A stretch of 64,000 nt of DNA, from assembly GCA_965206365.1 (NCBI GenBank), contig CBDBJL010000004.1:141144-205143 (forward strand). Reading direction: 5' to 3'. The stretch is from Alphaproteobacteria bacterium (GTDB taxonomy: Bacteria > Pseudomonadota > Alphaproteobacteria > JABAAW01 > JAHZMA01). Positions 15,515 through 63,195 of this stretch are shown here, piece by piece. Every line of letters begins with the position of its first letter. Positions within the stretch are counted from its first letter, which is position 1. The notes below the pieces were generated by a model that did no database searches, was not told where the DNA came from, and saw only the letters and a program-made list of their open reading frames with translations. The position numbers were made by a program, and so were the translations under genes.

Positions 15515-15704
15515 CGTTTTTGTCCTCGCCTTTTTGTTCTTGCTCACTGATCCAGCGGTCTACCTCGCTTTTGCGAAACCGCCACGCGCTTCCCACTTTG
15601 AAGCCCGGAACCTTGCCCTCAGATGCAAATCGATAGGCCGTCTTCTCAGCAATCTTGAGGTAATCGGCGAGTTCCTTCACGGTCATAATGTCATCATTAG
15701 TCAT
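15504..15704 (-). CDS. AlpA/excisionase-family HTH DNA-binding protein
   Basis: 66 aa with MerR/AlpA-like HTH (TVKELADYLKIAEKTAYRFASEGKVPGFKVGSAWRF); heads the hsdM operon. Confidence 0.65.
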   Translation of the reverse strand: MTNDDIMTVKELADYLKIAEKTAYRFASEGKVPGFKVGSAWRFRKSEVDRWISEQEQKGEDKNDGN

Positions 15705-35567: not shown

Positions 35568-37040
35568 TTACGGAAGGCAATTAAGATAAGTATCCACATC
35601 CCATTCAGTAACGGTATGGTTAAATCTTTCCCACTCGTCTGTTTTATATTCATGGAATAAACGATACATATCTCCAGGCATACCCGATTGCACCACCTTA
35701 TCTTTCGCAAGGGCTTCTAATGCTGCCCCTAAAGTCATAGGTAATTTTTGAACTTCCTTACCGGATTCCATCGCCGCATAAATATTACGCTCTTCTGGTT
35801 TACCGCAATCAATCTTATTATCCAATCCATCATCCACCGCCACAAGTATGGTTGTGCCCATCAAATAAGGATTTACCATTGAATCCACCGAACGAAACTC
35901 AAAACGACCCGGTGCAGAAATACGCAGACCTGTCGTTCTATTTTGAAAACCCCAATCTTTAAAGATTGGTGCCCAAAATCCAGTATCCCACAACCGACGA
36001 TAACTATTGACCGTAGAACAACCAATCGCAGTTAAAGCGTCCAAATGCTTTACAATGCCACCAATAGCGTGCTGACCAATAATTCCCGGCATTTGCGGAT
36101 CATCACCCGATGGCATGAAAGTATTTTCACCACCAGAAGAATAAGTGAAAACAGCTTCGTTAGCTGGAAGACCCCCTGATTTATGACCGAGCATTTTAAT
36201 TTTATCTTCACCACCCTTCCATAAGGAAATATTATGGTGACAACCATTAGCGGAAACACCCATAAAGGGTTTCGTCATAAAGCAAGCAATTAAACCAAAT
36301 TCACGCGCAACCTGTGCACAAATTTGCCGATAAGTCGATAATCTATCCGCATTACGCAAACAATCATCATAAGTCCAATTTAATTCTAATTGACCCGGTG
36401 CATCCTCATGATCTCCTTGAATAATATCCAAGCCCATCGCACGAGAATATTTAATTACCTGCATATAAACTTCACGCAAACTTTCAAATTGATCAATATG
36501 GTAGCAATATGGTCGCGAAAATCCACCATTGGGATTGCCATTTTCATCTTGTTTCAGCCACATCATTTCTGGTTCAGTGCCACAGCGTAGATGCATGCCA
36601 TGCTTATCTTGAAACTGCTGATGCAACCGTCGCAAATTACCACGTCCGTCTGATGTTAAAAAAGCGCCAGGATCCTGGCGCTCTTCGCGATTTCTAAATA
36701 AAGTACACCATACACGTGCAACTCGCTTATCCCATGGTAGTTGGCAAAAACTATCTGCCTCTGGAATTCCAACCAGCTCAGCTGCCTCAGGGCCATAACC
36801 AATATATTCATCATGGCGATTTTGAAACAAATTCACCGTAGCCCCATACACTAGTTGAAAACCTTTTTGTGCAATCGATTCCCAATGATCAGCGGGAATA
36901 CCCTTCCCACAAATCCGACCCGTTATCGAAACAAACTGTAAATATAAATATTCAACACCAAGAGAATCAATCTGTTTTCGCACCTGCTTAATCATATCGG
37001 CACGCCCGGGTGCCTCCACAAAACTTTCAATATCCGTCAT
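35568..37040 (-). CDS. gmaS: gamma-glutamylmethylamide synthetase (glutamine-synthetase type III-like)
   Basis: Glutamine-synthetase catalytic-domain signatures; heads the gmaS-mgsABC arrangement. Confidence 0.65.
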   Translation of the reverse strand: MTDIESFVEAPGRADMIKQVRKQIDSLGVEYLYLQFVSITGRICGKGIPADHWESIAQKGFQLVYGATVNLFQNRHDEYIGYGPEAAELVGIPEADSFCQLPWDKRVARVWCTLFRNREERQDPGAFLTSDGRGNLRRLHQQFQDKHGMHLRCGTEPEMMWLKQDENGNPNGGFSRPYCYHIDQFESLREVYMQVIKYSRAMGLDIIQGDHEDAPGQLELNWTYDDCLRNADRLSTYRQICAQVAREFGLIACFMTKPFMGVSANGCHHNISLWKGGEDKIKMLGHKSGGLPANEAVFTYSSGGENTFMPSGDDPQMPGIIGQHAIGGIVKHLDALTAIGCSTVNSYRRLWDTGFWAPIFKDWGFQNRTTGLRISAPGRFEFRSVDSMVNPYLMGTTILVAVDDGLDNKIDCGKPEERNIYAAMESGKEVQKLPMTLGAALEALAKDKVVQSGMPGDMYRLFHEYKTDEWERFNHTVTEWDVDTYLNCLP

Positions 37041-37896
37041 ATTTACTCCTAATTTCCAAATAAAACAGCGATAAATAAGATACTACTGTAACCAAAATGC
37101 CCACCGCCAATCACAATCAGTACTAAGGCGAATCACACTTTAAAGGACACCCTAATGAAGAAAGTAGGATATGTCAATTAACTTATGAGAAAAATGTTTG
37201 GATCAATAAAATTTATAACCCAAAATTATATCCATCACCCCATGTGAGTCGCATGATAACTACGCTAATCTCCAACTGAAAAACGATACCCAGCTGGGTA
37301 AAATTTATAATCACTACAAAATAAACTCTATCATTTCCCCTACACATAACAGAATCTCCCTGCTAAAACCCCTCAGTTTATTTTCAAATAACCGTTTTTC
37401 AAAAAAATCAAACGCACTAAATTTTTTAATCGCTTCTGTGATTTCAAATAAAATCTCGCAAACATGATATCTTGCGAAAAAAATTTTATACAGCTTCTAT
37501 ATTTCACTTTTTTTAAAAATCTATCCAATTTTTACACTTACTAGTTGTAATTATAGTCCTAATATTGTTAATTTCTTGTCAAATCAAAATCTTACTATTT
37601 ATGCAGTATTTTGGTGTTTCATCTCCCAAAAAACCTATACATACCGCTTAATGTAACTTTCATATCAAATGAAATACCAACATGCTCGTATATTCTGGAT
37701 ATCACCCAATAATAACGAGCCAACTGTTCATTTTGATACCTTCCGTAGCAATGCTTGAAAAAAATCAAACTACTTAAGCAAACCATATTACTTTTGGGAA
37801 AATGATCAACAACAGCTTGTGGTAGCGGAGCGGTTTTGATTTGTGGTATTCTACAAAATGATGTTGCTCTTAGTTTTGAATCTGTTGAGATTACCA

Positions 37897-37963
37897 TCCC
37901 CCCCTTGAATAATAATATGCGGGGGGATTTTAAGGGGGGTGGCCATCGGCTGGGCCACCCTTG
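37897..37963. repeat. G6/C6-armed nested palindromic element (family copy outside the prophage)
   Basis: tcccccccttgaataataatatgcgggggga followed by aaggggggtggccatcggctgggccaccctt. Confidence 0.6.
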
Positions 37964-38064
37964 ATTATAAAAAAATAGCGTTTAACGAGCGGGATTTACC
38001 CCTTGATCATAGAGATATTGAGCGATTTCTTTGCAGAAATCAAAATTCTGCTTTTCGGTATTTT

Positions 38065-39400
38065 CTAGCTATTAAAGTAAAGAGCAAGAAAATCAGAACT
38101 ATTGCGCTCTAACCCATCTTTGGCATGATCATAATCGCGTGTAATTTTTTCGGGTAAATTATAAACATCCGCGCCATATTGCACCATAAGCTTAAAAGAA
38201 TTCAAAATATCACCGCTAGAATCCTCTTTATACTGGTAATGCCAAGCCAACAGTGAGGCAGAAGTATATTAATAAAAATCGTAATAATTGGCAGATAATC
38301 TGGTAGGGTAAAGATTAGGATCTGCACCATATTCCAGCAATATTTTGGTAGTGGCTAAATTTTCTGGAGTTGGCTCTTCGATCATCCGATGCAGTAAACT
38401 ATAGTTATCATAATCATCATTATTAATATCTTGCCCACGGTTAATAAAAATTCTATTACCGGAAAATTATGGGCTTGAAGAGCACGACGAAACGAAGCAG
38501 CTGCAGAATATTTCGTATGTTTTACTAGGAAATCAAAAATTTCCGGATTAGAATTATGGGCGGCAAAATATAACGGGGTATCGGGTGTCATTAAGCTCTA
38601 ACCCTTCTGCAACTGCCTGTTTCACTTGTGCTAAAGTTACGGTTGCCAAAAATTGATAATCACTCTCTTTTGTAAGAATGCCAATATTATACAGATATTT
38701 CGCAATTTTCTTACAAGCATCATAATGATAACCATTTTCGTTATTAGGATACAATTCAGCATTAATAAAATATCTTTTCAATAAAGAAGACCGCATCATT
38801 TTTATAATTTCTTTCACCATAAATTTGGCTTCCACCGCCACCATAACCTCCATAAAGATATTCATTAAATAACATTATCCAACCTGCCCCCATAGGCTAA
38901 TAATAATTCAAATAGGGCTAATAATCTTATTCGTTGCTACAATATGTTCATCTGGAGCATCATAACGGGTAGCAATGATTTGTGAGTAAAGTGGTAGGTG
39001 TTGCAACAATGTCAAAATTCTCGCCATAAGAGAATAAATACGTATAGAAATTAGGATCTGCACCATATTCCAGCAATAATTTAACTTTGTCTAAATCACG
39101 ATTCTCTACGGCTCGATGCAAAGTGGTGTAGTCTTCATCATCAATAATATTAATATCTGCGCCAGCTTCCAGCAATAATTCAATTACCGGGATATTTTTT
39201 CCATTGATGGCGATGGCCAAAAGATCGGGAGTGAGGTATCGTTTTGCATAAACATCATAATAGCTATTTGTACTGGGAGTTTGTTAGAGTAAAAATTTGG
39301 CAATTTCAGGGTTAGGATTTTCAGCAGCATAATGTAGCGGTAAGAAATGCCCCTTCATAAGATCTGTTCTTATATTCATACCCTTAGGCAAGGGCATCCT
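38065..39400 (-). pseudogene. decayed ankyrin-repeat gene(s)
   Basis: At least four short minus-strand ORFs in different frames each encode ankyrin-repeat fragments (e.g. LLLEAGADINIID...TLHRAV). Confidence 0.5.
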
Positions 39401-39825
39401 TGACCTGTTTTAGCGTGGCAGTTTTCAGAAAATGATAATCTGATTGCTGTTGATTGGCATGGGCAACTACCATGATAAGGGCAGAGATACCGAATATAAT
39501 TTTCAACCATCTATATTCCATCTTTGCCCTGTATCTTCATAAAAATTGTAATCCCTATTTAAAATTACCAACAATCTTAATCAAAATTAATGTTTGACCC
39601 TTTATGTTGTGCATTTAAGTCTTTTTTAATTTTTTTAAGTGTTTCTTCGGTATGATTAAGGACATTATTTAAAAGTCTGATGCTACTTTCTTCTTTAAGT
39701 TTTATCGAGATTTCTTTGCCAAAAATTAAAATCCCTTTAATTACCTTTAACTTTGCCATAAAGCATGGTCCTTTCTAAAAAAAATGCTAGCTTTGTATGA
39801 GGGAAAATTCGCATCATCAAGAACT

Positions 39826-40611
39826 TTAGTAGTTAGAGAGAACGCCGATTTTGATCAGATAATTATCAAAGAAATCAAAATTGGCAAAATTGCCTTTCTT
39901 ATTTTTTGCTTTCACATCAGCGCCGTATTCGATTAAAATATCAATCATAGCAATCGTTTCTTCATAAGTGACATTACTAGTGGGCTCATATTGTTCATCT
40001 TCACTACATCCGCCACCTTCACTACACTCAATATAATGTTTTTCCCTATCGTATATTTGGTGTACGTATTTTCCATGAACAGCCTTAAAAAATGGGGTTT
40101 CACCATCATCATCACGGGCATTTACATCCGCCCCGGCATCTAGCAAAAGCTTGGTGATTTCAGCATTTTCAGTGTTATGCAAAGGCGTTTCTCCGTTAAT
40201 ACGATTACGGGCATTCGCATCTGCCCCTGCACTTAGTAACAGCTTAACAATTTCAGCATCGCGAGCCCAATGCAAAGGCGTATATTCCCAATAACTTTTG
40301 ATATTCACATCTGCCCCCTCTTCAATTAAGAAAATCGCAATCTCACTCCTTCCAGCAAGAAGAGCCCCAGGTAATAAAGTTTCACCATTTTCATCTCTGC
40401 TATTAATATCAATGCCCATTGCCAGTAATTCTTGAATATCAGCAAGGGTAGCGGTTTTCACATCAAAATAATATCTTATAGGATCTTCAATATCTACAAT
40501 TTCTTCCGCTTGCGCTATAACAAAAAAAAAGATTCCACCCATAAGAACACCCGTTATGAGTATGTTTATTAGCAAATTTGCGTGTTTGCTTTTTACCTTT
40601 AATTTTGCCAT
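39826..40611 (-). CDS. ankyrin-repeat protein with N-terminal signal/anchor helix
   Basis: Hydrophobic N-terminal helix followed by at least four ankyrin repeats (TPLHWA..., ETPLHNT..., ETPFFKA...). Confidence 0.8.
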   Translation of the reverse strand: MAKLKVKSKHANLLINILITGVLMGGIFFFVIAQAEEIVDIEDPIRYYFDVKTATLADIQELLAMGIDINSRDENGETLLPGALLAGRSEIAIFLIEEGADVNIKSYWEYTPLHWARDAEIVKLLLSAGADANARNRINGETPLHNTENAEITKLLLDAGADVNARDDDGETPFFKAVHGKYVHQIYDREKHYIECSEGGGCSEDEQYEPTSNVTYEETIAMIDILIEYGADVKAKNKKGNFANFDFFDNYLIKIGVLSNY

Positions 40612-40633
40612 AAATTATTCTCGTTTTCTAAAA

Positions 40634-40668
40634 AGATGCTAGCTTTGTTCATACAAAACTAGCATAAG
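40634..40668. promoter_or_regulatory. near-perfect inverted repeat upstream of the ankyrin gene; part of a 5' region duplicated at 39760-39795
   Basis: atgctagctttgt-N-acaaaactagcat; a similar ctaaaaa..atgctagctttgt leader also precedes the MAKLKV start of ORF 39577..39759. Confidence 0.35.
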
Positions 40669-40702
40669 TTTGCTTACATAACAAATAATATTTATGAAAT
40701 AT

Positions 40703-40930
40703 TTACTTACTTAAAATGCTGTTAGTTGTTTCTAAGATTTTTTTATATTCTGCTTTATCTTTTTCTGCTATTTCTGCTTTTTCACTCGCAGTTTTATAAA
40801 ATGTAGAAATTGAACTTATTGCCTCGTTAATTTTTATCATTGCCTTATTCACATCAGCAATGTTTTTTACGCATGGATTATCATTATTCCGATTTTTTGC
40901 TTCTAAAATTGCCGAGCGCATCGCCACCAA
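40703..40930 (-). CDS. hypothetical small coiled-coil protein
   Basis: 75-aa ORF, Lys/Glu-rich. Confidence 0.3.
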   Translation of the reverse strand: MVAMRSAILEAKNRNNDNPCVKNIADVNKAMIKINEAISSISTFYKTASEKAEIAEKDKAEYKKILETTNSILSK

Positions 40931-41028
40931 GGCGGCAATATCGCGTACCTTATCAATATTATAAATATTAGGATATTTAGAATCTTCAGATTTCTTTTTT
41001 ACTGCATTGTTAAATGAAAGATGGTATG

Positions 41029-41340
41029 CTTTAAGGTGGCAGTGATGTGCGACTATCTGCGAAGTGCTACGATATGGTGCGATGAGGTTGATTCCTGAAT
41101 AGATATTAAACTGCTATAATTACCTATAAATGCTTATAAACAAGGCTTCTAAGCTGTAAGGCTTGGTTTAAGATTATTCATAAACTGCCATAAAACGTGC
41201 TTCAAGTGGCTTATTTTTTTGCTTTTGCAACATGGCAGTCTCGAAATTTAGAAAACTAAAAAAAAACTTTTAAACCCTATATTTTAGGGTTTTGATTTCT
41301 AACATGGCAGTCGAAATCATCTTAAGGTGGCAGTTTAATT
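41029..41340. repeat. cluster of short direct repeats with a CGAAA core (candidate Mu-type transposase-binding sites at the prophage terminus)
   Basis: Exact 13-mer ttaaggtggcagt at 41029 and 41321; exact 12-mer aacatggcagtc at 41229 and 41301, both followed by (t)cgaaat; inverted copy aactgccat at 41183. Confidence 0.4.
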
Positions 41341-41350
41341 CTGATTAATC

Positions 41351-42100
41351 CTAAACATTTTCGGGATATTCATCCCAAGTTTTTCCGCGCCATTTACGAC
41401 CTGTTTTTTTCTTATTAACACCGCCCCATTGCTTAAAGAAGAAGGCTGTGCCAGTTTTTCGGCATAATGCTTCAATTTCAGCTATCCATTCATCATCCAT
41501 ATTTCGTGCCGAAGGGCCGCTCTCGCCACCTATAATTGCCCAATCAATCGCCGTTAAATTAGCCTTAGATACCGAAGCTAATAAGGGCTCAAACGATACA
41601 AAGCGGATGGTTGCCGGCATAAGTCGTAATTCATCAAGCCTGTCAATATAAGCGTTGCTCTCAACACTTACGCCGATCCAGATATGCGCAGGCAATTGAT
41701 AATTATATTTCATCAAAAATTCTCTAGCGCGTTCCGGGCGTTTAGTTAAAATTTGAAATTCATGCCAATCGGCTTTCAGCATCGTATTAAATGCTTGTTT
41801 AATAAATTTATCGGGGACGGCTTCATAAAATAAATCCGACATAGAATTAACAAATATTTTCGCGGGTTTACGCCATTTTAGGGGTTGTGATAACAAATTT
41901 TCATCAAAACTGGCTTTTCCGGTCCAATTGGCTTTACCTTCACGTTTAACAGTGCCAATATAAAGTGGGTGTTGCATGGCTTGCAGGCGTTCTGCCATTC
42001 GAATTGCATAGCAATTTTTGCAACCTGGCGAAACCTTAAAGCAACCTTTCACTGGGTTCCATGTGCGGTCAGTCCATTCAATTTTGCTAATTTCACCCAT
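41351..42100 (-). CDS. phage Gp37/Gp68-family protein (DUF5131)
   Basis: N-terminal IEWTDRTWNPVKGC..SPGCKNCYA signature. Confidence 0.65.
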   Translation of the reverse strand: MGEISKIEWTDRTWNPVKGCFKVSPGCKNCYAIRMAERLQAMQHPLYIGTVKREGKANWTGKASFDENLLSQPLKWRKPAKIFVNSMSDLFYEAVPDKFIKQAFNTMLKADWHEFQILTKRPERAREFLMKYNYQLPAHIWIGVSVESNAYIDRLDELRLMPATIRFVSFEPLLASVSKANLTAIDWAIIGGESGPSARNMDDEWIAEIEALCRKTGTAFFFKQWGGVNKKKTGRKWRGKTWDEYPENV

Positions 42101-42103
42101 TTA

Positions 42104-42466
42104 TTACCTCTTATAATTATTTTTTAATTGATTAATTAACACTTTAATCGTTTGTTGATCATTATCAGAAAGTTTTTTTAAATCACGATACATTGCAACT
42201 AATCCAGAATCCTCATCAGAAGCATCAGGATTTTCACCAACCAAATCAGCTATTCCTACTTGAAAAAAGTCTGCCAATCTTTTGAGAAGGTCAAGTGACG
42301 GATTTTTTGCTTTGCCAGTCTCTAAATCCCAAATATGAGTTTTGGATGCACCTACCCTAGTCGCAACATCTTGAAGAGAAATAGATTTTTTAAGTCTTAA
42401 TTGTTTTAATCGCAATGCTAATGACACTTCTTTTAATTCGTAATCGGTATATTGTTCTCTATTCAT
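42104..42466 (-). CDS. XRE-family HTH transcriptional regulator
   Basis: LSLQDVATRVGASKTHIWDLETGK...PSLDLLKRLADFF, a classic HTH_3 pattern. Confidence 0.7.
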   Translation of the reverse strand: MNREQYTDYELKEVSLALRLKQLRLKKSISLQDVATRVGASKTHIWDLETGKAKNPSLDLLKRLADFFQVGIADLVGENPDASDEDSGLVAMYRDLKKLSDNDQQTIKVLINQLKNNYKR

Positions 42467-43076
42467 AATCGCTATCCTTTTCTAGCAATTTTCTACAAGG
42501 GGGAATCCATACAAGACTGGTATTTTTTTGTGGATTTTTCTCCCAAACAAACCACGCATAAGCTGTTGCGCTTTTAATTTTGCTATCAAGTCGCCCTTTT
42601 ACTAAAGGTACGCGTTCGGCAAATGGGGCAAAGATTGTGGGGGGTGTTTGAGAAAATAAACGGTTATATCGCCCTATAGATTCTGTAAAATTACCGCGAC
42701 AAAACATGGCAACGCCATCGGTGGCAAGCCCTAACGATTTTGAAATAAAACCCTCAGCTTTGTTAAAAGGGGGATTTGTAATTACCCATTGGGGCGGATG
42801 GCAATAAAAATCATCGCTTAAAAAATCTTTTACATTAGCTTTTTCATAGCCGTAATCGTGAATGTCGGCGGCATAGACATTTTCAAAATAATCCGCTAAG
42901 GTCTCCGCCATATACCCCCTGCCGCCAAGCACGCTTTTATTTGATAAAGTGCTATTTAATACATATTTAATCAGGGCGCGCGTTGCCCAGGGCGGGGTAG
43001 GAAAATCATCTAAGCCATCGCCAATTTCATGCCGTTGCGCCATTATTGCGTAGGATCCTTTGGGTATCATTTTCAA
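42459..43076 (-). CDS. phage Dam-type DNA N6-adenine methyltransferase (putative)
   Basis: NPPF motif (WVITNPPFNK) and N-terminal FPTPPWATRAL, resembling the phage Dam MTase family; adjacent to the C5 MTase gene. Confidence 0.5.
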   Translation of the reverse strand: MKMIPKGSYAIMAQRHEIGDGLDDFPTPPWATRALIKYVLNSTLSNKSVLGGRGYMAETLADYFENVYAADIHDYGYEKANVKDFLSDDFYCHPPQWVITNPPFNKAEGFISKSLGLATDGVAMFCRGNFTESIGRYNRLFSQTPPTIFAPFAERVPLVKGRLDSKIKSATAYAWFVWEKNPQKNTSLVWIPPCRKLLEKDSDYE

Positions 43077-43080
43077 ATCC

Positions 43081-43935
43081 TTAAATTAAAATTAATTGGT
43101 TGTTATTTTCGGTTTCATACTCAAGATTCTTGCAATGAATTTTCAAGAGTAAGCCACGCATATGCGCTTGCCAATGGCATAACGGAATTTCCGCAACTTC
43201 TAATTCTGTCCACCCTGTTGGCAAACCCATCATCCATTCGGTGAATTGAGGGTTTAAAATCATCTCTAACTTTTTGCCATTTTGGGGAGTCGAGTCTTGG
43301 CGCGAAAGGGGGCATCCATTCCACATGTGTGCGACTTGATCCCGCAAGGAGGCAGGCATTTTTCTTTCTAATCTCTTCTTGAAAGTTTCCTCGCTTAGCA
43401 CCCCCCCATCGCCTCTGTAGCTTTTATGGTGCGCCATAATAAATAATCGCTCTCTTTTGTGAGGCGCACCAAGCTCCTCCGCGCTGAACAAGCCAGCCGC
43501 AACTTTGTAACCCAAACATTGAAGATCTTTTGCGACATCGTAAAATCCATTAGATAAATGTTGGCGGACATTTTCAAAGAAGCAGATTTTTGGCTGAATT
43601 TCCCTGATAATTCTTGCGATTGCGTTCCACAAATAGGCGGGGTCGTTTTTGCCAAGTCGTCTACCTGCTGCGCTGAATGGCTGGCAGGGGTATCCGCCAG
43701 CAATGCAATCCACGATTCCACGCCATGGCTGGCAATCAAAGGTGGCAATATCCGCTCAAATAGGCGCGCAATCCAAGTTTCCTGCTTGCATTTGTTTTGC
43801 CAAAATTTCGCAGGCATATGTTTCCCTCTCCACGTAACATATAACGCGGCTGTTTGGCTTTGCCAATTTAATTCCGAGTTCGAGTCCGCCGATCCCGGAA
43901 CATATTGATAAAATTTTTGGGGAACAAAAATCCAC
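43081..43935 (-). pseudogene. DNA cytosine-5 methyltransferase with an in-frame TGA (complement 43756-43758) and a C7 tract (43391-43397)
   Basis: One frame carries motif I ICSGIGGLELG, motif III/IV DIATFDCQPW...GGYPCQPFSAAG, motif VI FFENV, motif VIII HKRERLF and a motif-IX-like EWMMGLPTGWT; the only interruption is a single TGA between motifs II and III; probable GTG start near 43935. Confidence 0.7.
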
Positions 43936-43938
43936 AAT

Positions 43939-44580
43939 TTAAATATCCTTTCGCAACCACTTTCCAAACCTGACGATTAATTTATCGAGGGTTTCATTAT
44001 CTAAATATCTATGGTTCATGCCGTAACCATTGCGGTCACACCAATTATCGAGTGCAAACCGGCTGGCATTGCTCTTCACTTTATCTTGCCAAAACAATTT
44101 TTCCCATTGCGCCCGCACGATGTAAATTCGTGGATTTTCATCGTCAATGAATTGCACTTTACCCTCGCGCGCCAGCATTGCTTTTAAGGCCTCAATGGCT
44201 TTATACGCCACTTGTGGGGTCATCCAATTTTCATGGTCAACCTTAATTTGCCTCTTTACAAAGGCGCGAATGGCATGATCGCTACGGTTTTCAACCACCC
44301 CTAACCAATATGCAGAAATCCAAAGCGCGCGCAATTTTTTCACAACCTCATTGTTTGGTAGGGTCGAGGTTGTTCCCCCCTTGCCAATAATCTCATCGAT
44401 AACCTTGTAAATTTGCCCTATTTGCATTTTGCCGGCAGAACTTGTATTTGTAATTCGTTTGTACAGTGCGCGCTTGCTGGCATCATCAATGCCATTATTG
44501 TTAATTTCGATGTGCAATTTAGCCAGGGCTTTGCGCTTTTCTGGGGAAGCTGGAGATTTTGCGGGTGTTTTAGCCATCAT
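43939..44580 (-). CDS. gemA: Mu gp16/GemA-like protein (DUF1018)
   Basis: LWISAYWLGVVENRSDHAIRAFVKRQ...IEALKAM aligns with the recalled Mu GemA pattern. Confidence 0.55.
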   Translation of the reverse strand: MMAKTPAKSPASPEKRKALAKLHIEINNNGIDDASKRALYKRITNTSSAGKMQIGQIYKVIDEIIGKGGTTSTLPNNEVVKKLRALWISAYWLGVVENRSDHAIRAFVKRQIKVDHENWMTPQVAYKAIEALKAMLAREGKVQFIDDENPRIYIVRAQWEKLFWQDKVKSNASRFALDNWCDRNGYGMNHRYLDNETLDKLIVRFGKWLRKDI

Positions 44581-45034
44581 TATTTCCTTTCAATATTGCG
44601 CCGATAGCAGAATAGCCGGCTTTATCGAGCCAGCTATCGCTGTGCGCGGGGTTGTTCATTAAACGCGCTGTTTTTAGCGCATCCAAACATAAAGCCACTT
44701 GTTGTGGCTTAATTTTTGCGCGTAAAATCACGCTCCACAGCTTGGCAATTTCGGCAAAATGCTGGTTAGGGTCGCCATAAATCGCCCGCGATTTCAGAGT
44801 TTCTGCTAAATCTTGGCAAAAATCCTTATCTAAGGGTTGCTTGGCGGGGGGCACAGAATGCTCCCTGCCTGTATTTAGTTGCTGGATTCTGGCTTTCGCC
44901 CATTTCGGGCAATCAATATTAACACCCGTATCATCAAGGGCATGTTGCCATTTATCATCTTCTTCCCGCTCATTAATAATTCGCGAGATTGCACGCGCCA
45001 AAAGATATTTTTTCAAATGAAATTCAGCTATCAT
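44570..45034 (-). CDS. hypothetical protein (possible helicase-associated)
   Basis: 154 aa, immediately downstream of dnaB in the same operon. Confidence 0.35.
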   Translation of the reverse strand: MIAEFHLKKYLLARAISRIINEREEDDKWQHALDDTGVNIDCPKWAKARIQQLNTGREHSVPPAKQPLDKDFCQDLAETLKSRAIYGDPNQHFAEIAKLWSVILRAKIKPQQVALCLDALKTARLMNNPAHSDSWLDKAGYSAIGAILKGNNDG

Positions 45035-46479
45035 TTTTTCTCTAAATTTTCAAAAAGGGTGTATTTTGGCTCAAAATATAACGCCACTTCGCCAATTGCG
45101 CCGTGGCGTTGTTTTTGCACCGATAGAACGGCTTTATTTTTTGAATTTATTAATAATTCATTATGTTTTTCCTGCCTAAGCGCAAATTTTGCATCACTTT
45201 CAACATCGCGTTGTTCGGGTGTTTTGCGTTCAAGATAATATTCAGCACGATACAAAAACATCACCACATCGGCATCTTGTTCAATTGCGCCAGAATCTCG
45301 CAAATCAGAAAGTTGGGGGATCGGCGGGTCGCGTTGCTCTACCGCGCGCGATAATTGCGATAATACCAAAACCGGAATATCTAATTCTTTAGCAAGGGCT
45401 TTTAAGCCTTGCGATATCGATGTAATTTCATTTACTCGTCCATCATATTTGCCGCCCGCTTTCATTAATTGCAAATAATCGATAACGATTAAATCTAAAC
45501 TTTGGCGGCGCATTAATCGCCTAGCCCGCTGCCTAATAATCGCCACATTTATGGCGGGTGTTTGGTCAATAAAAATGGGCATTTGGTCGATAATGGCGGC
45601 GGTTCTGGCCAGGGTAGAAAATCCACGCGCAGAGATATTGCCGCGGCGCATATCATCGCTGGCAATTTTACACGCGCCAGATAAAATTCGTGCCGTTAAT
45701 TGTTCGGCACTCATTTCCAGTGAAAACACGGCTACGCGTCCGCCTTCGATTTCTTCATTATCAATATTTTTAAATTTGCTAGCAACATTATAGGCAATAT
45801 TTAACGCTAGTGCGGTTTTGCCCATGCTGGGGCGGGCAGCTAAAATAATCAAATCGCTTTTATGCAGCCCGCCCAAAATTTTATCAATATCATAAAATCC
45901 GGTGCTAATGCCGCTAATACCACCTCCGCGTTTAATTGCTGCGCTAATATTTTGAATTGCTGAATGTAAATGGGTTTTAATATTAATTAATTTCGCGCCA
46001 TCTTCGCCTTTTTCCGCCAATTCGAACAGAGCAGTTTCTTGTTCCTCAAGAATTTCATTGCCGGTTTTAGTAACATCGCCAGATTGTGCAATTTCAACAT
46101 ATTGTTGATTTATTAAAATTAATTCGCGTTTTAAGGCAAGGCTGGCAAGCGTTTTGGCATATTGTCCAACAGAGATCATTGAAAATACATTATTCGCCAA
46201 AGTCTGCAAATAATTATCCCAATCAGCATCAAGATGTGGAATTTCTTTTAGCAAATAAGCCAATGTATCTTCGTTTGCAGTTAGCCCTTCAGTCACTAAT
46301 TTGGATATTTCCGTGAAAATAATACGATGAACGTCATGATAAAAATGGCTTGGCTGACTGATATCAACAATTTTTTCAAAAACCTTATTATTGCGCAAAA
46401 GCGCGCCTAGCAAAGCGGCTTCAATTTCGATGGAATAAGGCATGGCAGCAGGCGCAGGTTTTTTAAGATAATCAGCCAT
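45031..46479 (-). CDS. dnaB: DnaB-family replicative DNA helicase
   Basis: N-terminal DnaB domain and RecA-like core with Walker A ARPSMGKTALAL; 482 aa. Confidence 0.9.
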   Translation of the reverse strand: MADYLKKPAPAAMPYSIEIEAALLGALLRNNKVFEKIVDISQPSHFYHDVHRIIFTEISKLVTEGLTANEDTLAYLLKEIPHLDADWDNYLQTLANNVFSMISVGQYAKTLASLALKRELILINQQYVEIAQSGDVTKTGNEILEEQETALFELAEKGEDGAKLINIKTHLHSAIQNISAAIKRGGGISGISTGFYDIDKILGGLHKSDLIILAARPSMGKTALALNIAYNVASKFKNIDNEEIEGGRVAVFSLEMSAEQLTARILSGACKIASDDMRRGNISARGFSTLARTAAIIDQMPIFIDQTPAINVAIIRQRARRLMRRQSLDLIVIDYLQLMKAGGKYDGRVNEITSISQGLKALAKELDIPVLVLSQLSRAVEQRDPPIPQLSDLRDSGAIEQDADVVMFLYRAEYYLERKTPEQRDVESDAKFALRQEKHNELLINSKNKAVLSVQKQRHGAIGEVALYFEPKYTLFENLEKK

Positions 46480-53952: not shown

Positions 53953-53985
53953 TATAATGCCAAAAACGCACAATGCGTTTTTGGC
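53953..53985 (+). promoter_or_regulatory. TATAAT -10 element followed directly by a 12-bp-arm perfect palindrome (candidate autoregulatory operator)
   Basis: tataat 53953-53958; gccaaaaacgca-caa-tgcgtttttggc 53959-53985; the ATG of the S24 repressor is at 53995. Confidence 0.5.
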
Positions 53986-53994
53986 AAGAATAAG

Positions 53995-54663
53995 ATGCTA
54001 AAGAATATTTCAGAATTTATTGAAAATAGAATTAAAATTAATGGAACTAATCCGAGAGCACTTTCGCTTGCGGCAGGATTAACGCATTGCGCGGTTCATG
54101 AATTGATAAGTGGCAAAACTAAATCTCCATCATTTAAAAATATGAATTTAATACTAGAAGCTCTTAATTGCCGGTTAGAAATTATCACCCCCGAAAATGA
54201 TAGCATTGCACTTTCTGCGCCGAAAAAACAGATAACACCTTCACGCAATGTTGAATTACGGGGTTTAACCCCCTGCGGCGGTGGCGAATGGTTTGAATTT
54301 GATCATGGTAGAATTCAAGCCAAATGCCCACCAGATTTAGAAGATCCAGATGCTTTTGCCGTTATCACCAAAGGCGAATCATTGCAACCTTTTGGCATTT
54401 GGCCAGGGTTTCTATGTTTTTGTTCGCCAAACACAAAGCCAAATCCTGGCGATATTTGCATGATTGAACGAATCGATGGCTTAACTACGTTAAAAAAATT
54501 TGCTTCCGATGATGGGCTGGTTCAAATTTTTGTGGAATATTCGAATTCAACAGAAAATTACGCAGGTATCACCCAAAAGCTTTTTGAACTAAAAATGGAT
54601 AAAAACATGATTCACCGCCTATCAGTAGTAATGCACATTATTACCCGCCCCGTTTTCAGATAA
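53995..54663 (+). CDS. CI/LexA-like repressor (HTH plus S24 peptidase)
   Basis: N-terminal HTH; S24 catalytic Ser in GESLQP and Lys in TLKKF. Confidence 0.8.
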   Translation: MLKNISEFIENRIKINGTNPRALSLAAGLTHCAVHELISGKTKSPSFKNMNLILEALNCRLEIITPENDSIALSAPKKQITPSRNVELRGLTPCGGGEWFEFDHGRIQAKCPPDLEDPDAFAVITKGESLQPFGIWPGFLCFCSPNTKPNPGDICMIERIDGLTTLKKFASDDGLVQIFVEYSNSTENYAGITQKLFELKMDKNMIHRLSVVMHIITRPVFR

Positions 54664-54756: not shown

Positions 54757-54987
54757 ATGCGTATCTTACTAATCATCATATCATTTTTAACGTTAGCAAA
54801 TTTTGCTAATGCGGTAATGTCGTTACCGTTTTCTAATCCATCCAAATTTCTACCAAAAGATGCTTTTGTGTGTTATACACTGGAAAATGCAAAAATTATT
54901 TATGCTGCATCTTCTGGGGGAAAAGAAGATTTAGAAAAATTTGCCGCGCTGTATGTGTCCCCAGAAGATTTTGATTTTTTTGATTAA
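54757..54987 (+). CDS. small secreted protein (moron candidate)
   Basis: Signal peptide MRILLIIISFLTLANFANA. Confidence 0.4.
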   Translation: MRILLIIISFLTLANFANAVMSLPFSNPSKFLPKDAFVCYTLENAKIIYAASSGGKEDLEKFAALYVSPEDFDFFD

Positions 54988-55047
54988 GATGCACCTGCGG
55001 AGATCATTTCCGCAGGAAGGTGAGCATGGAACTTATAGAGATTCAAA

Positions 55048-55575
55048 TTAATCATCTATATCTATATCTTTAAGTTCGCGGGCAAAAATGGCAGCATCTA
55101 TGTCATCAATATAAATTTGGCAAGCGATTGCCATTTTATCAAAAGCTATTTTTTGGGCAACATCACTGGCGATATCAAAACAATTAATAAATATTAAATA
55201 AATATCATCATTTATAAATTGCAAATTTTTCATATTCAAATGCAATTTTTCTAGCATTCCATCCGCCGCCACCAAATCGCTATCCACCATAATTGCCACG
55301 CAATGTGGGTAATAATTATGATACACACAGCTTATCATCATGGCAACATTTGGGTCATCGCCCATATTATACGGTTCGCTAATGGCTACTTCGGATAATA
55401 TAGGAAAAAGCGAGTTATTTTTGCCCTGCACGTTTATCTTTTTTAGCTTTTCTAACCCCAGCAAGCTGTTTTCAATTTTTTGATAAATCAACCTAACAGG
55501 GCCAGATGGTGCGACTTCGCCCCCCTCCCACCGCCGCACGATGCGATCATCTTTTAAACCTAAAAAATCAGCCAT
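55048..55575 (-). CDS. hypothetical protein with N-terminal partial HTH-like segment
   Basis: ADFLGLKDDRIVRRWEGGEVAPSGPVRLIY resembles the recognition-helix half of an XRE HTH; acidic C-terminus. Confidence 0.45.
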   Translation of the reverse strand: MADFLGLKDDRIVRRWEGGEVAPSGPVRLIYQKIENSLLGLEKLKKINVQGKNNSLFPILSEVAISEPYNMGDDPNVAMMISCVYHNYYPHCVAIMVDSDLVAADGMLEKLHLNMKNLQFINDDIYLIFINCFDIASDVAQKIAFDKMAIACQIYIDDIDAAIFARELKDIDIDD

Positions 55576-55654
55576 TTCACGTTGGCTAAACCCTAATGTT
55601 TTGCGTATTTTTTGATAATTTATTTTATTTTTCCTATGGTATCGTTAAAAATAA

Positions 55655-55690
55655 TATCCACTAAAAATAAAGGGGGATGCTACTACCCCC
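55655..55690. terminator. GC hairpin flanked by T/A runs (bidirectional terminator-like)
   Basis: aaagggggatgctactacccccctttttt between the two minus-strand hub genes. Confidence 0.4.
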
Positions 55691-55710
55691 CTTTTTTCGG
55701 ATGATGTAAA

Positions 55711-56640
55711 TTATTCGCGCGCTTCTTCAATAGCTTCTTGCAATTCGGCGTGAATAACGCGCAAAACATGGTTATTTGCCATTAGCGTGTGGATTTCGTC
55801 AAAATCAACGTTTTCGTTGCCAACCTCGCTTTCTTGCACCTCAATCGTAAAAGCATCGGTAATTATTCCGCGTTCAGATAAATCAAAACTTTGATATTTG
55901 CGATGGCTGTTTTCAAGCACAAAATCAATCGGATCAATAATTTGATCTTCTTCTTCTAAATCTTCTTCAATATCTAAATAACCATTTTCTTTATCAATTT
56001 CTACGATAGAATCAAACATCTCACCTACTTTTTGATTAATGAAAAAAACATGATTTTCTTGCAAAAACTTTAATGTTGAACGGGTGATTGATTCGCAATC
56101 AGCTGTAATCAACAGGCGATGCACCCACATGGCATTACCATTGGGAAAGCTGTATATTTTACCATGTTCAAAATTACTTTTGCCAAAGCTATCTTCCGCC
56201 GCTTCGGCTGTGGGGCATTTTTCCCAATCATTGTGCAAAATAACGCTAGATATTTCTATATTTAACTTTTCTGCAATTTCAAGTTTTAAAGCCGAAGCAT
56301 CTTTTTTGGCGAAATCATTGCGCGAACCGTTATAAATTTTACCATCTAAAATGCCTTGTAAAATTTCATTAGCGTCAGCTTTTGATAGTTGCACGCCCAT
56401 TTCAATGGGGAAATCATCATTTTCTTGAAATAGCGAAACCACCTCATCCACAGCGATTGCTTTTTCAGCCAATAATTTGGCTATAAACCAAATTTGTTTA
56501 CCGGTTGCTGGGCAACCCTCGGCAATATCGGAATAATTATTCAAGATATCTTGAATTTGTTTTTGCTCGGTGATGATAATATTTTTTAGAATTTTCATTT
56601 TAAATTTCCTTTTTATGTTAAAAGTGGGCAATTTGCCCAT
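55711..56640 (-). CDS. hypothetical 309-aa protein (hub accessory gene)
   Basis: No recognised domain; acidic; second in-frame Met at 56598; palindrome tgggcaatttgccca (56625-56639) overlaps the 5' end. Confidence 0.45.
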   Translation of the reverse strand: MGKLPTFNIKRKFKMKILKNIIITEQKQIQDILNNYSDIAEGCPATGKQIWFIAKLLAEKAIAVDEVVSLFQENDDFPIEMGVQLSKADANEILQGILDGKIYNGSRNDFAKKDASALKLEIAEKLNIEISSVILHNDWEKCPTAEAAEDSFGKSNFEHGKIYSFPNGNAMWVHRLLITADCESITRSTLKFLQENHVFFINQKVGEMFDSIVEIDKENGYLDIEEDLEEEDQIIDPIDFVLENSHRKYQSFDLSERGIITDAFTIEVQESEVGNENVDFDEIHTLMANNHVLRVIHAELQEAIEEARE

Positions 56641-56673
56641 CAGGTTCAGCTAGATGCCTTGCTGATGATTTTA

Positions 56674-56696
56674 ATATAGGGCATTATGCCCTATAT
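56674..56696. promoter_or_regulatory. 11-bp-arm perfect palindrome containing the ATATAGGG motif (candidate operator)
   Basis: atatagggcat-t-atgccctatat; related TATAGG motifs at 53875-53881, 53908-53916 and 41272-41291. Confidence 0.45.
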
Positions 56697-56755
56697 TGTC
56701 AACAGTAAAATTCAATAAAAATATCTTTTTTCAAAAAAAAGTGCTTTTAGATGAT

Positions 56756-56784
56756 TTGACAAGCCCGCAAGCCATTGCTAGAAT
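56756..56784 (+). promoter_or_regulatory. sigma-70-type promoter TTGACA-17-TAGAAT for the Mor/C-like gene
   Basis: ttgaca 56756-56761, 17-nt spacer, tagaat 56779-56784; predicted start site at or near the ATG (short or no leader). Confidence 0.5.
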
Positions 56785-56790
56785 CAAAAG

Positions 56791-57156
56791 ATGATTCCCC
56801 TATACACAGAAATGGCTAATTTGCTTGGCGAAAATGATGCGCGCCAGATTATTCAACGGTTGGGCGGGAATCGCTTTTATGTGCCGTTTCCAAAAAATCT
56901 AACGCGCAATCATAAATTATCGCAAAAGCTAGGGTTTCACCGTGCCAAGCGATTTTGCAAAGCCTTTGCTGGCGATATTTTAGATATTCCCAAAGCCCCC
57001 GGCATTAGAGCATCGCAATTAGTGGCGGTGTTGGATCGTGCAGGTTACGATTCTGCTGAAATCGCGTGGTTGGCAGGCATGGATCGCAAACATATCTGCC
57101 AAATCTTAGCGATGCCTCAGCGCAAATTTTCAAGTGATTTTTCCCCTAAAATTTGA
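56791..57156 (+). CDS. Mor/C-family late transcription activator
   Basis: IIQRLGGNRFYVPFP matches the Mor-family GG..YIP core. Confidence 0.6.
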   Translation: MIPLYTEMANLLGENDARQIIQRLGGNRFYVPFPKNLTRNHKLSQKLGFHRAKRFCKAFAGDILDIPKAPGIRASQLVAVLDRAGYDSAEIAWLAGMDRKHICQILAMPQRKFSSDFSPKI

Positions 57157-61348: not shown

Positions 61349-62959
61349 TTGATGAAGAAACAAATCCAAAAACCCGAAATGCAAGAAATCGCCACCGCTG
61401 GCGGTTTAGACGATATTAGCCGGTATTATAGCGGTGCCCCGCACGATGCTGATTATCGGCAATCTGCGCTTGCCAACCAAGTTGGCAACGATGAGGCTTG
61501 GCACAAGGCTGCAGAATTTGCCCGTGCCGATGGGCAAGTAGCCGCCTGTATGGGGCAACGGCATCTTGCAGTTACCTCGTTCGCTTGGGAGGTGATACCG
61601 GGCGATGATAGTAAAATAGCGCAAGATGTGGCTGATTTTATTACCCAGCAATTTGAACGGATTCGCTTCAATGATATTTCAGAAAAATTATTATGGGCGC
61701 GTTTTTACGGGGCTTCAGTTGCCGAGGCATTATGGGGCATGGAAGGTAATAAAATAATTTTGCAAGATTTGCGGGTACGGAATCTAAAAAGATTTCATTT
61801 TACCCCCGGTGGCGATGCGCTTTTGCGCACCCATACAAACCCTAATGGGCAAATTGTGCCAGAAAATAAATTTATAATTTTGCGATCAGGCTCGCCTCAT
61901 TCTGATAATCCATTTGGCGAGGGGTTAGCAGATCACCTTTATTGGCCCGTGCGGTTGAAAAAGCTAGGGGTGGCAGAATGGACTTTGTTTTTAGAAAAAT
62001 TTGCCAGCCCCACCATCACCGGCAAATATCCGGCGAATGCCAGCCAAGATGAACGCGATATCTTGTTAAATATTGCCAAATCGGTACGCCGCGATACCGC
62101 TGCGGTGATGCCAGATTCTATGATGCTAGAGATTTTAGAAATCAGCAGGCGTGGCGATGGCGGCTATGTAACGTTTGCAGATTATATGGATAAAACTATC
62201 AGCAAAATTATTATTGGGCAAACAATGACCACCGACGATGGCGCATCGTTAAGCCAAGCCCAAGTGCATAAAGTGGTTGCGGATCGGATTATAAAAGCTG
62301 ATGCCGAATTAATTTGCGAAGGCTTAAATGATACCATTGTTAAATGGTTATGCGGGTGGAATTTTGCAAACGCGCCCCAGCCCACTTTGCGCCGCATTAT
62401 GCCCGAGCCATTTGATGAAAAGGCGCGCGCTGAAACTTTGGCAACGCTTTATAATATCGGCTTTAAGCCCGATTTAAACCGCATTCAAGAAGATTTTGGC
62501 GAAGGCTTTGCAGAGAGAGATTTAAGTGCAGGAGATTTTGGTAATAAAAACCCCCCGCCCACGCAATCTACAAAAAATAATTTTGCTGAAGCTAAAGAAA
62601 ATCCTGACCCCCCCTTAAAAGATAATGAGCGGGGGGATCTTAAGGGGGGGCATCGCAAGGGGTTGAGCTCGTCTTCAATCCCGAGAAGCGATGTCGCACC
62701 CCCCTTAATAAATAAGGATAATATCGATAATATTGTGGATTTGCTAGAAGAGGGGGATCGGCTAGCTTTTGCCGAAATGCTGAATCCCATGCGCAAAGCC
62801 TTAGCAAAAGCCAAAAGCTTTGATGATTTAAACCGGCGTTTAACGCGCCTTGAAGGCAAGGGCAAAATCAACAAATTAGGCAAATTGTTGCAAGCCGCCA
62901 CTGGCTTTGCCCATATTAAAGCCAGTGATGACATAAAGGATGATCCCCTTGAAAAGTAA
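61349..62959 (+). CDS. Mu gp29-like portal protein (DUF935), with an in-frame palindromic insertion near the C-terminus
   Basis: DUF935-like N-terminus; element 62606-62715 translates in frame (DPPLKDNERGDLKGGHRKGLSSSSIPRSDVAPPL). Confidence 0.75.
   Translation: MMKKQIQKPEMQEIATAGGLDDISRYYSGAPHDADYRQSALANQVGNDEAWHKAAEFARADGQVAACMGQRHLAVTSFAWEVIPGDDSKIAQDVADFITQQFERIRFNDISEKLLWARFYGASVAEALWGMEGNKIILQDLRVRNLKRFHFTPGGDALLRTHTNPNGQIVPENKFIILRSGSPHSDNPFGEGLADHLYWPVRLKKLGVAEWTLFLEKFASPTITGKYPANASQDERDILLNIAKSVRRDTAAVMPDSMMLEILEISRRGDGGYVTFADYMDKTISKIIIGQTMTTDDGASLSQAQVHKVVADRIIKADAELICEGLNDTIVKWLCGWNFANAPQPTLRRIMPEPFDEKARAETLATLYNIGFKPDLNRIQEDFGEGFAERDLSAGDFGNKNPPPTQSTKNNFAEAKENPDPPLKDNERGDLKGGHRKGLSSSSIPRSDVAPPLINKDNIDNIVDLLEEGDRLAFAEMLNPMRKALAKAKSFDDLNRRLTRLEGKGKINKLGKLLQAATGFAHIKASDDIKDDPLEK
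62606..62715. repeat. G6/C6 palindromic element inserted in frame in the portal gene
   Basis: ccccccccttaaaagataatgagcggggggatcttaagggggggcatcgcaagg...gagaagcgatgtcgcaccccccttaat. Confidence 0.65.
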
Positions 62960-63195
62960 TGATGCGGGGGGATCACAAGGGGGGATATCGCAAAGCATTG
63001 GGCGTACCGCCTCAATGTTGAGAAGCGATACCGCTCCCCCCTTGAAAAGTAATGATGCGGGGGGATCACAAGGGGGGATATCGCAAAGCATTGGGCGTAC
63101 CGCCTCAATGTTGAGAAGCGATACCGCTCCCCCCTTGAAAAGTAATGATGCGGGGGTCAAGGGGGTTATGCCGATTAGGCATTCCGCACCCCCTT
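62945..63195. repeat. tandem array (2 exact 93-bp units plus partial) of the same palindromic element between portal and F genes
   Basis: Unit gaaaagtaatgatgcggggggatcacaaggggggatatcgcaaagcattgggcgtaccgcctcaatgttgagaagcgataccgctccccccttg at 62951, 63044 and partially at 63137. Confidence 0.8.

Follow-up and report, generated by a model that had tools for sequence, protein, structure and literature searches.

KorC-controlled promoters in plasmids and a probable KorC-type module in a Mu-like prophage

The KorC repressor and its operator O_C have been studied as a regulatory device of IncP and IncU plasmids. In RP4, KorC represses klcAp, the promoter of the antirestriction gene klcA, and klcA is the gene of that plasmid with the strongest zygotic induction, at 224-fold (PMC7314908). 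In plasmids, promoters bearing the KorC operator are almost silent at steady state and fire on entry into a naive cell (PMC7314908). In the IncU plasmid RA3, klcAp is strongly repressed by KorC and a terminator or modulator follows klcA (PMC7414963); korC itself is made from a weak constitutive promoter together with read-through (PMC7414963, PMC7783346). The KlcA/ArdB proteins act in vivo against type I restriction-modification (R-M) systems (PMC2836571). Here we describe a cassette of two genes, orf295 and orf175, that lies in the hub between the diverging arms of a Mu-like prophage, within a 64,000-nucleotide stretch of an alphaproteobacterial contig (CBDBJL010000004.1, positions 141,144 to 205,143; the window hereafter). 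On balance, and with slightly better than even confidence, we take this cassette to be a KorC-type 'kil-kor / klcA-korC' module, as found in the IncP-1 and IncU conjugative plasmids, placed in the prophage hub. If so, the novelty of this plasmid-type KorC switch lies in its carrier, a transposable prophage, in a cargo gene that is an orphan and in a KorC-like regulator that is enlarged and has no canonical start codon.

An exact KorC operator in the orf295 promoter

A consensus scan found a promoter upstream of orf295 (TTGACA, 18 nt, TATATT) that matches the sigma-70 consensus at 11 of 12 positions (Table 1). Its spacer is occupied by a perfect 12-1-12 palindrome overlapping the -10 TATATT (56678-56673); perfect palindromes whose arms reach 12 nt occur only twice in the 64 kb, this one included. 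Contained within it is the exact 17-bp operator O_C (TAGGGCATAATGCCCTA), which occurs in full nowhere else in the window. That this is the IncP-1 KorC operator was verified on the RP4 sequence (CP152305.1), where the sites at positions 3711, 4366 and 11693 are identical to the 17-mer of the window and follow the pattern TAGGGCAT(A/T)ATGCCCTA. A text search of the literature with the operator string gave no match. The three O_C sites of RP4 are identical or near-identical, each consisting of TTGAC(A/T), 3 nt, O_C and an overlapping -10, and they stand immediately upstream of the antirestriction gene klcA, of kleA and of the gene at the kleC position, with korC annotated close by. The register in the prophage is TTGACA, 3 nt and O_C, the last 2 nt of which are overlapped by TATATT. 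This register, with a gap of 2-3 nt, is common to RP4, to L105, L106 and L107, the O_C promoters of Aeromonas, Xanthomonas and Methylomonas included, and to the metagenomic examples.

A second operator-like element, O2 (TGGGCAAATTGCCCA), is found in the 5' leader of orf295. It is a 7-1-7 palindrome with the core GGGCAWNWTGCCC that shares bases with the first ATG (56640) and, in the fold of the leader, gives an RNA hairpin. There are just two perfect matches to GGGCAWNWTGCCC in the window, 53 bp apart, where about 0.008 would be expected. The leader element GGGCA-N3-4-(T)GCCC is present here as GGGCAAATTGCCC (56626-56638) at +55, ahead of the Shine-Dalgarno (SD) sequence and the ATG, and its equivalent is located at about +33 in klcAp and kleAp of RP4, in the Aeromonas and Methylomonas plasmids (L107, L106) and in contigs L093 and L096. 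The KorA operator GTTTAGCTAAA, an IncP-1-specific element next to the -35, is present in RP4 and in the Xanthomonas IncP plasmid but has no copy in the window or in any of the non-IncP O_C promoters. Judged from the RP4 sequence and from the papers on KorC control of klcA, the orf295 promoter is probably a KorC-operator promoter, an assignment that we hold with more confidence than that of the module as a whole. The perfect conservation of both palindromes argues that the regulation is still under selection.

The putative regulator gene orf175

In a preliminary description of the locus, orf175 was given as a 175-aa protein with a partial helix-turn-helix (HTH). The HTH-like N-terminus is there, and the domain would be complete only with 16 further in-frame codons upstream of the annotated start (INYQKIRKTLGFSQRE-MADFLGL...), which reach back to ATA 55623 with no canonical start codon between. 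At this ATA an SD sequence AGGA (55635-55632) has the 8-nt spacing also seen at the start of orf295, and a run of 191 open codons has a chance probability of ~2e-7 in DNA of 36% GC. The HTH of the extended form scores 16-26 bits against profiles of KorC and of Aca (anti-CRISPR-associated) proteins; from the annotated ATG it scores about 3 bits. We infer that orf175 is either translated from ATA 55623 or a recent start-codon mutant.

The N-terminal, KorC-like HTH of the XRE type is followed by an acidic orphan C-terminal domain of ~130 aa. In blastp the HTH is 46% identical over 35 aa to KorC of RP4 (85 aa), and the Smith-Waterman score of the pair is 53, against 22.5 +/- 4.2 for shuffled sequences. 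The recognition helices are near-identical, reading DDRIVRRWEG in orf175 and GDRTVRRWVG in KorC (DRIVRRW versus DRTVRRW). Identity to the KorC homologue of a Yersinia phage is 52% over 23 aa. When 15,790 background ORFs were ranked with KorC profiles orf175 came first (E 0.006 and 5e-6), with Mor-like HTHs close behind, and its top matches among 1,776 ORFs of the module loci described below are KorC genes, the best being the KorC of L088. The best match of the HTH among solved structures is Aca3 (E 0.04). The C-terminal domain has no matches in the protein collection, the family libraries or the module-locus ORFs, the whole protein found only itself among 5.8 billion clustered proteins, and tblastn against phages gave only weak generic HTH matches. 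On balance it is somewhat more likely than not that orf175 is the cognate repressor of O_C.

The G/C hairpin terminator that had been proposed between the two genes was confirmed by a terminator scan (10-bp stem and T-run; fold -18.1 kcal/mol, z = -2.8). A terminator stands at the same position between the antirestriction gene and the KorC gene of the Aeromonas plasmid NZ_CP083945. This terminator, like the weakness of the signals for orf175 expression, might seem to speak against an operon model, but both are family traits of klcA-korC modules.

The cargo gene orf295

Two minus-strand ORFs had been described in the cassette, the larger at 55711-56640. Both exist and both are longer than chance allows, the probability of 295 open codons in DNA of 36% GC being ~4e-11. 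Their GC content by codon position (GC1>GC3>GC2) is like that of the neighbouring genes. The start of orf295 is most likely the second ATG (56598), because an SD sequence AGGA lies 8 nt upstream of it (56610-56607) while the first ATG (56640) has no SD sequence and sits inside the palindromic operator/hairpin; this gives a protein of 295 aa, which is also the form recorded in the public database. The product was correctly described as acidic and without a recognisable domain, with an isoelectric point (pI) of 4.6 for the 309-aa form and a pI of 4.45 and net charge of -33 for the 295-aa form.

Searches of Pfam, PHROG, PADLOC and NCBIfam with the whole proteins and with domain pieces (E<=10) returned no meaningful match for either orf295 or orf175. 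With orf295, only self-hits were obtained in a word-indexed search of 5.8 billion clustered proteins and in an exhaustive HMMER search of 1.8 billion representatives, no match was found among solved structures (PDB sequence search) and tblastn against 50,697 phage records gave nothing. The protein shows no enzymatic, NTPase, transmembrane or toxin-like features and no internal repeats. It was considered as a cryptic KlcA, which was rejected when hhalign of the KlcA profile against orf295 gave a probability of 0.1%, and as KlcB or one of KleA-F, likewise rejected, there being no phmmer match and nothing similar in any KorC-module locus. The earlier view that no function could be assigned from the sequence holds where the proteins are concerned; it fails for the regulatory DNA, in which the KorC operator can be recognised.

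Accessory status of the cassette

A set of 80 distantly related Mu-like loci with related transposases was assembled by an alignment-based TnpA scan. Homologues of TnpB were detected in all 80 and of p102 in 73, with ParB (28), Gam (23) and Mor (20) less widespread; orf295, orf175 and the neighbouring 76-aa ORF were detected in none. The GC content of the cassette is 0.36, compared with 0.42 and 0.45 for the prophage arms, and the orf295-orf175 unit has its own promoter and terminator. The cassette is accessory and does not belong to the Mu-like core, as the preliminary description had suggested for genes in the hub, and the hub of phage BcepMu is similar in this respect. The possibilities, also raised there, of homology to structural or replication proteins or of conservation in all Mu-like phages were tested, and no homologue was found in the 80 loci or the 50,697 phage records.

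KorC-operator promoters elsewhere

A blastn search with O_C retrieved 27 plasmid records at E<=10, most of them conjugative. Each record of the IncP-1 group has three sites; the shortest of all the matches (e.g. Macrococcoides, Nostoc) may be due to chance. A scan of public contigs with the palindrome only retrieved 18 viral and metagenomic contigs of 34-69% GC, most having the order -35, 2-3 nt, palindrome and -10. Three IMG/VR contigs carry the operator. In several contigs a KorC-like HTH ORF adjoins the operator, in L088 with an E-value of 3e-25 and more weakly in L095, L086, L096 and L099, and the HTH proteins beside the operator in the pattern-retrieved contigs have the common motif RT(V/S)RRW. 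The first gene after well-formed O_C promoters encodes KlcA (PF03230) in five independent cases: RP4, the Xanthomonas plasmid, the Aeromonas plasmid, L097 and L090. The Xanthomonas IncP plasmid has the order klcA-klcB-korC. Other first genes are RadC-JAB followed by KorC in L088, DUF2958 in L087, KleA or KleC in RP4 and small acidic orphans elsewhere. O_C is found in tandem in L093 (799-837, 24 bp apart) and before successive operons in L097 (536, 1088) and, with degenerate copies, in the Aeromonas plasmid (L107, 3480 and 4443), which would fit a single KorC acting on several neighbouring cargo units.

Among the 50,697 phage genomes, KorC homologues were found only in three Yersinia phages, with no O_C nearby, and in no phage record was an O_C promoter found. 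The homologue in Yersinia phage vB_YpM_39 (L108, 3962-4249), annotated as hypothetical, is 47% identical to KorC of RP4 and adjoins a DNA invertase and a HigB2-like toxin; its helix differs (SRNVRNW) and no O_C-type operator was seen in the 8 kb examined.

The closest layout is that of the Aeromonas hydrophila plasmid NZ_CP083945, in which a KorC-only promoter (11 of 12 matches to consensus) is followed by one cargo gene, a terminator hairpin and the regulator, ~100 bp downstream on the same strand as in the prophage, and then by kleE. The two differ in that the Aeromonas module has a 143-aa antirestriction protein of the PF03230 type as its cargo and a canonical KorC of 86 aa (E 2e-35 to KorC of RP4) as its regulator. 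With the KorC regulon of the IncP-1 plasmids (RK2/RP4) the cassette shares the 17-bp operator, the -35/-10 register, the GGGCA..GCCC leader element and a recognition helix of the DRTVRRW type. In contrast to the IncP-1 case, its promoter lacks the KorA operator found in RP4 promoters, its carrier is a Mu-like prophage and not a plasmid, its cargo is unrelated to KlcA or Kle and its regulator has 191 aa with an extra C-terminal domain, compared with 85 aa. The klcAp-klcA-terminator-orf04-korCp-korC order of RA3 resembles the arrangement proposed for the cassette in that a strongly KorC-repressed cargo unit is followed by a terminator or modulator, with the regulator produced from weak signals and read-through; KorC of RA3 is however a global regulator of several plasmid modules, whereas the prophage shows one operator-bearing promoter in 64 kb. 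Contig L088 (IMGVR_UViG_3300017702_000602), a predicted viral contig, also combines an O_C promoter with a cargo other than KlcA (RadC-JAB) and a KorC, although its regulator is a short KorC of the canonical kind (85 bits to KorC of RP4) and its cargo has a recognisable domain.

Proposed mechanism and role of the cargo

In the scheme suggested by these comparisons, the near-consensus sigma-70 promoter would drive expression of the 295-aa acidic cargo under the control of the exact KorC operator in its spacer and -10 and of the related second site in the leader. Transcription from this promoter would then meet the attenuating terminator, and read-through would express orf175, the KorC-like HTH protein of which would bind O_C, and possibly O2, and shut the promoter. 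Phage DNA entering a repressor-free cell would produce a burst of cargo and the established lysogen would be silent, which is the logic of the zygotic induction of klcA. The operator architecture predicts repression in the prophage, provided that orf175 is functional.

The cargo may be an establishment, anti-restriction or anti-defence factor. This is a tentative proposal, put at rather less than an even chance, and is based on the position, charge and orphan nature of orf295: five O_C promoters have KlcA/ArdB in the equivalent slot, the product is an acidic orphan and a type I R-M operon is present in the window. That host operon (7799-15547) makes an anti-restriction role plausible and proves nothing. 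A more ambitious version, which we regard as somewhat unlikely, is that orf295 represents a new anti-restriction or anti-defence family, possibly a DNA mimic (charge -33), recruited into the KlcA slot, and that orf175 represents a new class of KorC-like repressor whose C-terminal domain would add a sensory or partner-binding input.

The register-conserved operator serves here as a guilt-by-association handle, and genes without protein homologues have been placed in a functional context by way of their regulatory DNA. A switch known from IncP and IncU plasmids is now seen on a transposable prophage and on uncultured contigs with varied cargo. Scanning for O_C promoters could be a cheap route to candidate anti-defence or establishment genes, in the way that aca genes have been for anti-CRISPRs. 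One specific 295-aa acidic orphan is nominated as an anti-restriction candidate, with a type I R-M operon in the same 64-kb window.

Evidence against the assignment and alternative explanations

Several observations weigh against the assignment to a KorC-type module. orf175 shares only the HTH core with KorC, lacking its N-terminal (ECL.PAE.W) and C-terminal (IPYAAWA.LC) motifs; its profile scores (16-26 bits) are modest and are nearly equalled by Mor-like HTHs against the broad profile; and tblastn of its HTH against plasmids places generic MqsA, NadS and XRE matches ahead of korC. Pfam and NCBIfam contain no KorC model. Having no canonical start for the complete HTH, orf175 may be poorly expressed or inactivated, in which case the promoter would be constitutive. 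Compared with its equivalent in plasmids, O2 is displaced downstream by ~20 nt, about two helical turns. The cargo exceeds the typical size for such modules and has no similarity to KlcA or to any known anti-defence protein. Profile-HMM (hidden Markov model) searches and structure prediction, both suggested in the preliminary description, gave no family match and unusable single-sequence AlphaFold2 models, with a predicted local distance difference test (pLDDT) score of 34.6 for orf295 and 41.4 for extended orf175. The hub proteins, including Mor, the repressor and the small secreted protein, are all singleton clusters; Mor has no relatives in the 5.8-billion-protein search, and scanning viral and genome contigs with either Mor or TnpA as the single query protein brought up nothing. 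Since Mor and the repressor are singletons too and the closest transposases among 185,000 species genomes are just 27-37% identical, the orphan status of the cassette proteins partly reflects an unsampled lineage and is not special in itself.

The operator itself also allows for a kil-type gene, in which case orf295 would be a host-toxic or host-takeover protein overridden by a Kor-like repressor, with a role in maintenance or host control, and not in anti-restriction, like that of kilC and kilE of RK2. The klc and kle operons (kilC, kilE) of the RK2 kil-kor regulon are loci that were first defined by host lethality in the absence of the kor genes. The same operator controls kleA and kleC in RP4, the tight control of a near-consensus promoter from two sites is what toxicity of the product would demand, and one metagenomic O_C promoter precedes a weakly HicA-toxin-like ORF. 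This explanation is nevertheless unlikely, given that five of the well-formed O_C promoters examined drive KlcA antirestriction genes and not toxins and that orf295 is large, very acidic and soluble, with no toxin-like domain. The preliminary description had instead pictured a moron or a defence or anti-defence cassette. As a classical moron or defence cassette, the genes would be expressed in the lysogen from their own promoter and would benefit the host, for example by superinfection exclusion or abortive infection. In favour of this are the promoter and terminator of the unit, a GC content below that of both arms and a position adjoining the repressor and a secreted-protein moron, and a non-functional orf175 (ATA start) would leave the near-consensus promoter constitutively on, this being the main route to lysogen expression. 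The promoter is however of the repressor-controlled class that is kept almost silent at steady state in plasmids (PMC7314908, PMC7414963), which speaks against lysogen expression, and both palindromes are perfectly conserved. The defence half of the earlier suggestion also loses ground to the lack of PADLOC matches and of enzymatic, NTPase or transmembrane features, and we rate the moron or defence cassette below the kil-type gene; anti-defence, tentative as it is, is the half that the evidence supports best.

The missing start codon of the orf175 HTH and the singleton status of both proteins would be compatible with a decaying, non-functional remnant of a plasmid-derived module, the ORFs of which are no longer usefully expressed. 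Two long intact ORFs in AT-rich DNA (P ~4e-11 and ~2e-7), perfect operators, a near-consensus promoter, well-spaced SD sequences, an intact terminator and a neighbour-like GC content by codon position make decay improbable, more so than the moron. Least probable is an acr-aca operon, with orf295 as the anti-CRISPR (Acr) and orf175 as an Aca-family repressor. The anatomy fits well: acr-aca operons (Aca1-Aca14) have a strong early promoter with inverted repeats, a leader RNA motif, anti-defence cargo first and an HTH autorepressor last, matched here by the inverted repeat within the core promoter and a second repeat like it, by the RNA hairpin of the leader and by the downstream HTH (PMC9410906, PMC13551039). 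Aca3 is the best solved-structure match, profile scores reach 19.7 bits for Aca9, 16.4 for Aca3 and 14.7 for Aca2, and Mu-like prophages do carry aca genes (an Aca10 homologue in L049, 85 bits). Ordinary Mu-like repressors, BcepMu gp17 among them, score equally against the Aca profiles, however, and by profile score orf175 cannot be told from generic phage repressors. Neither the Aca3 operator consensus from the literature (TGCTTCTGATAAATCATATTTTGAA) nor any other Aca motif tabulated resembles TAGGGCATAATGCCCTA; the operator is exactly that of KorC, a better match than that of any tabulated Aca family. The cargo, at 295 aa, is larger than typical Acrs (usually <200 aa) and matches no known Acr, and examination of parts of the window identified neither CRISPR-Cas genes nor an array. 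The Aca10 homologue of L049, a Methylothermaceae Mu-like prophage, is located ~5.5 kb downstream of the transposase (11715-11978), which suggests an acr-aca locus in the semi-essential early region.

Table 1. Features of the cassette and of the surrounding hub (window coordinates)
Feature	Position	Strand	Description
orf295	55711-56598	-	ORF, 295 aa; 309 aa if from ATG 56640
orf175	55048-55575, extended to 55623	-	175 aa from annotated ATG 55575; 191 codons from ATA 55623
HTH of orf175	~55623-55489	-	N-terminal, KorC-like, XRE
-35 hexamer of orf295 promoter	56697-56702	-	TTGACA; consensus scan
Perfect palindrome, 12-1-12	56673-56697		contains O_C
O_C	56677-56693		exact KorC operator, 17 bp
O2	56625-56639		second operator-like element, 7-1-7
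Intrinsic terminator or attenuator hairpin	55694-55669	-	between orf295 and orf175; terminator scan
G/C hairpin, 8 bp	54994-55016		no T-run; read from sequence
76-aa ORF	54757-54987	+	directly after repressor, same strand
S24/HTH repressor	53995-54663	+	between the two arms
Palindrome, 12-3-12	53959-53985		upstream of repressor start codon
Mor promoter	56756-56791		near-consensus sigma-70, extended -10

The prophage and other features of the window

The early arm of the Mu-like prophage runs leftward on the minus strand from ~53.9 kb to ~41.3 kb and encodes a phrog_7669 protein, a ParB-like protein, transposase A (rve, Mu-transpos_C and HTH_Tnp_Mu_1 domains), the AAA+ B protein, Gam, DnaB, methyltransferases and DUF5131. 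The late arm runs rightward from 56.8 kb with Mor, a Gp48-like protein, an M15 endolysin and the large terminase. Two abutting prophages were considered and rejected: the block at 24.5-37 kb (ABC transporter and similar) is host DNA and BcepMu has the same architecture of diverging arms, and there is therefore a single prophage. BcepMu also has accessory genes after the repressor in its hub (gp18-gp20), of which gp18, a membrane protein, may be likened to the 76-aa ORF that follows the repressor here. It differs in that gp18-gp20 are co-oriented with the repressor and the late arm, in the absence of a KorC-type module and in that its Mor is at the far end of the early arm, whereas here Mor heads the late arm.

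The 76-aa ORF, an adjacent signal-peptide ORF in the preliminary description, does have an N-terminus that resembles signal peptides of the Sec type (AXA motif). It too is an orphan, with no family matches and a singleton cluster. Between its 3' end and the convergent 3' end of orf175 lies the G/C hairpin (CCTGCGGA, 7 nt, TCCGCAGG), which was not called by the terminator scan.

The window's only other perfect palindrome with arms of at least 12 nt (GCCAAAAACGCA-caa-TGCGTTTTTGGC) stands ~60 bp upstream of the -35 of the early promoter, flanked on one side by the repressor promoter's -10 and on the other by the start codon of the repressor gene. It may be an operator for the repressor or for Ner, or else a leader hairpin, and its sequence is unrelated to O_C. 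An operator common to orf295 and the c-repressor/early promoters was considered and rejected, the CCTATAWT half-sites there being -10-like boxes only; the GGGCAWNWTGCCC core was not found in the c-repressor/early promoter region, which has this different 12-3-12 palindrome. The Mor promoter (TTGACA, 17 nt, TG-TAGAAT) has a -10 that stops just 6 nt short of the ATG, which implies a leaderless mRNA. In the inspected examples among the 20 of 80 related loci with a Mor homologue, the gene is located downstream of the early operon on the same strand.

The early-arm genes at 41351-46479 include those for a full DnaB-type helicase and DUF5131, together with DNA methyltransferase ORFs that seem to be fragmented (42459-43713); such a cargo is unusual for a Mu-like early region. 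The outer end of this arm (37000-41300) is very AT-rich (34-35% GC) and encodes a 261-aa ankyrin-repeat protein (39826-40611, pI 4.6), the gene for which may be a further accessory or effector gene at the prophage end. In the late region a 93-bp tandem repeat is present in 2.3 copies that are 100% identical (62945-63156).

The type I R-M operon is complete (7081-15547, minus strand), with HsdM of 838 aa, an hsdS split into ORFs of 262 aa and 194 aa and HsdR of 1067 aa. It also includes a 283-aa Bro-N domain gene that overlaps hsdR at its start; the gene after the operon encodes a YgjP-like metallopeptidase. A TnpB / IS605 OrfB gene (Cas12f-like TNB domain) and then an 802-aa protein with RNase H-like and superfamily 1 (SF1) helicase parts are found at 17320-20854. 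A GpJ-like phage tail protein at the far left of the window (2186-4456) indicates part of a second phage element.

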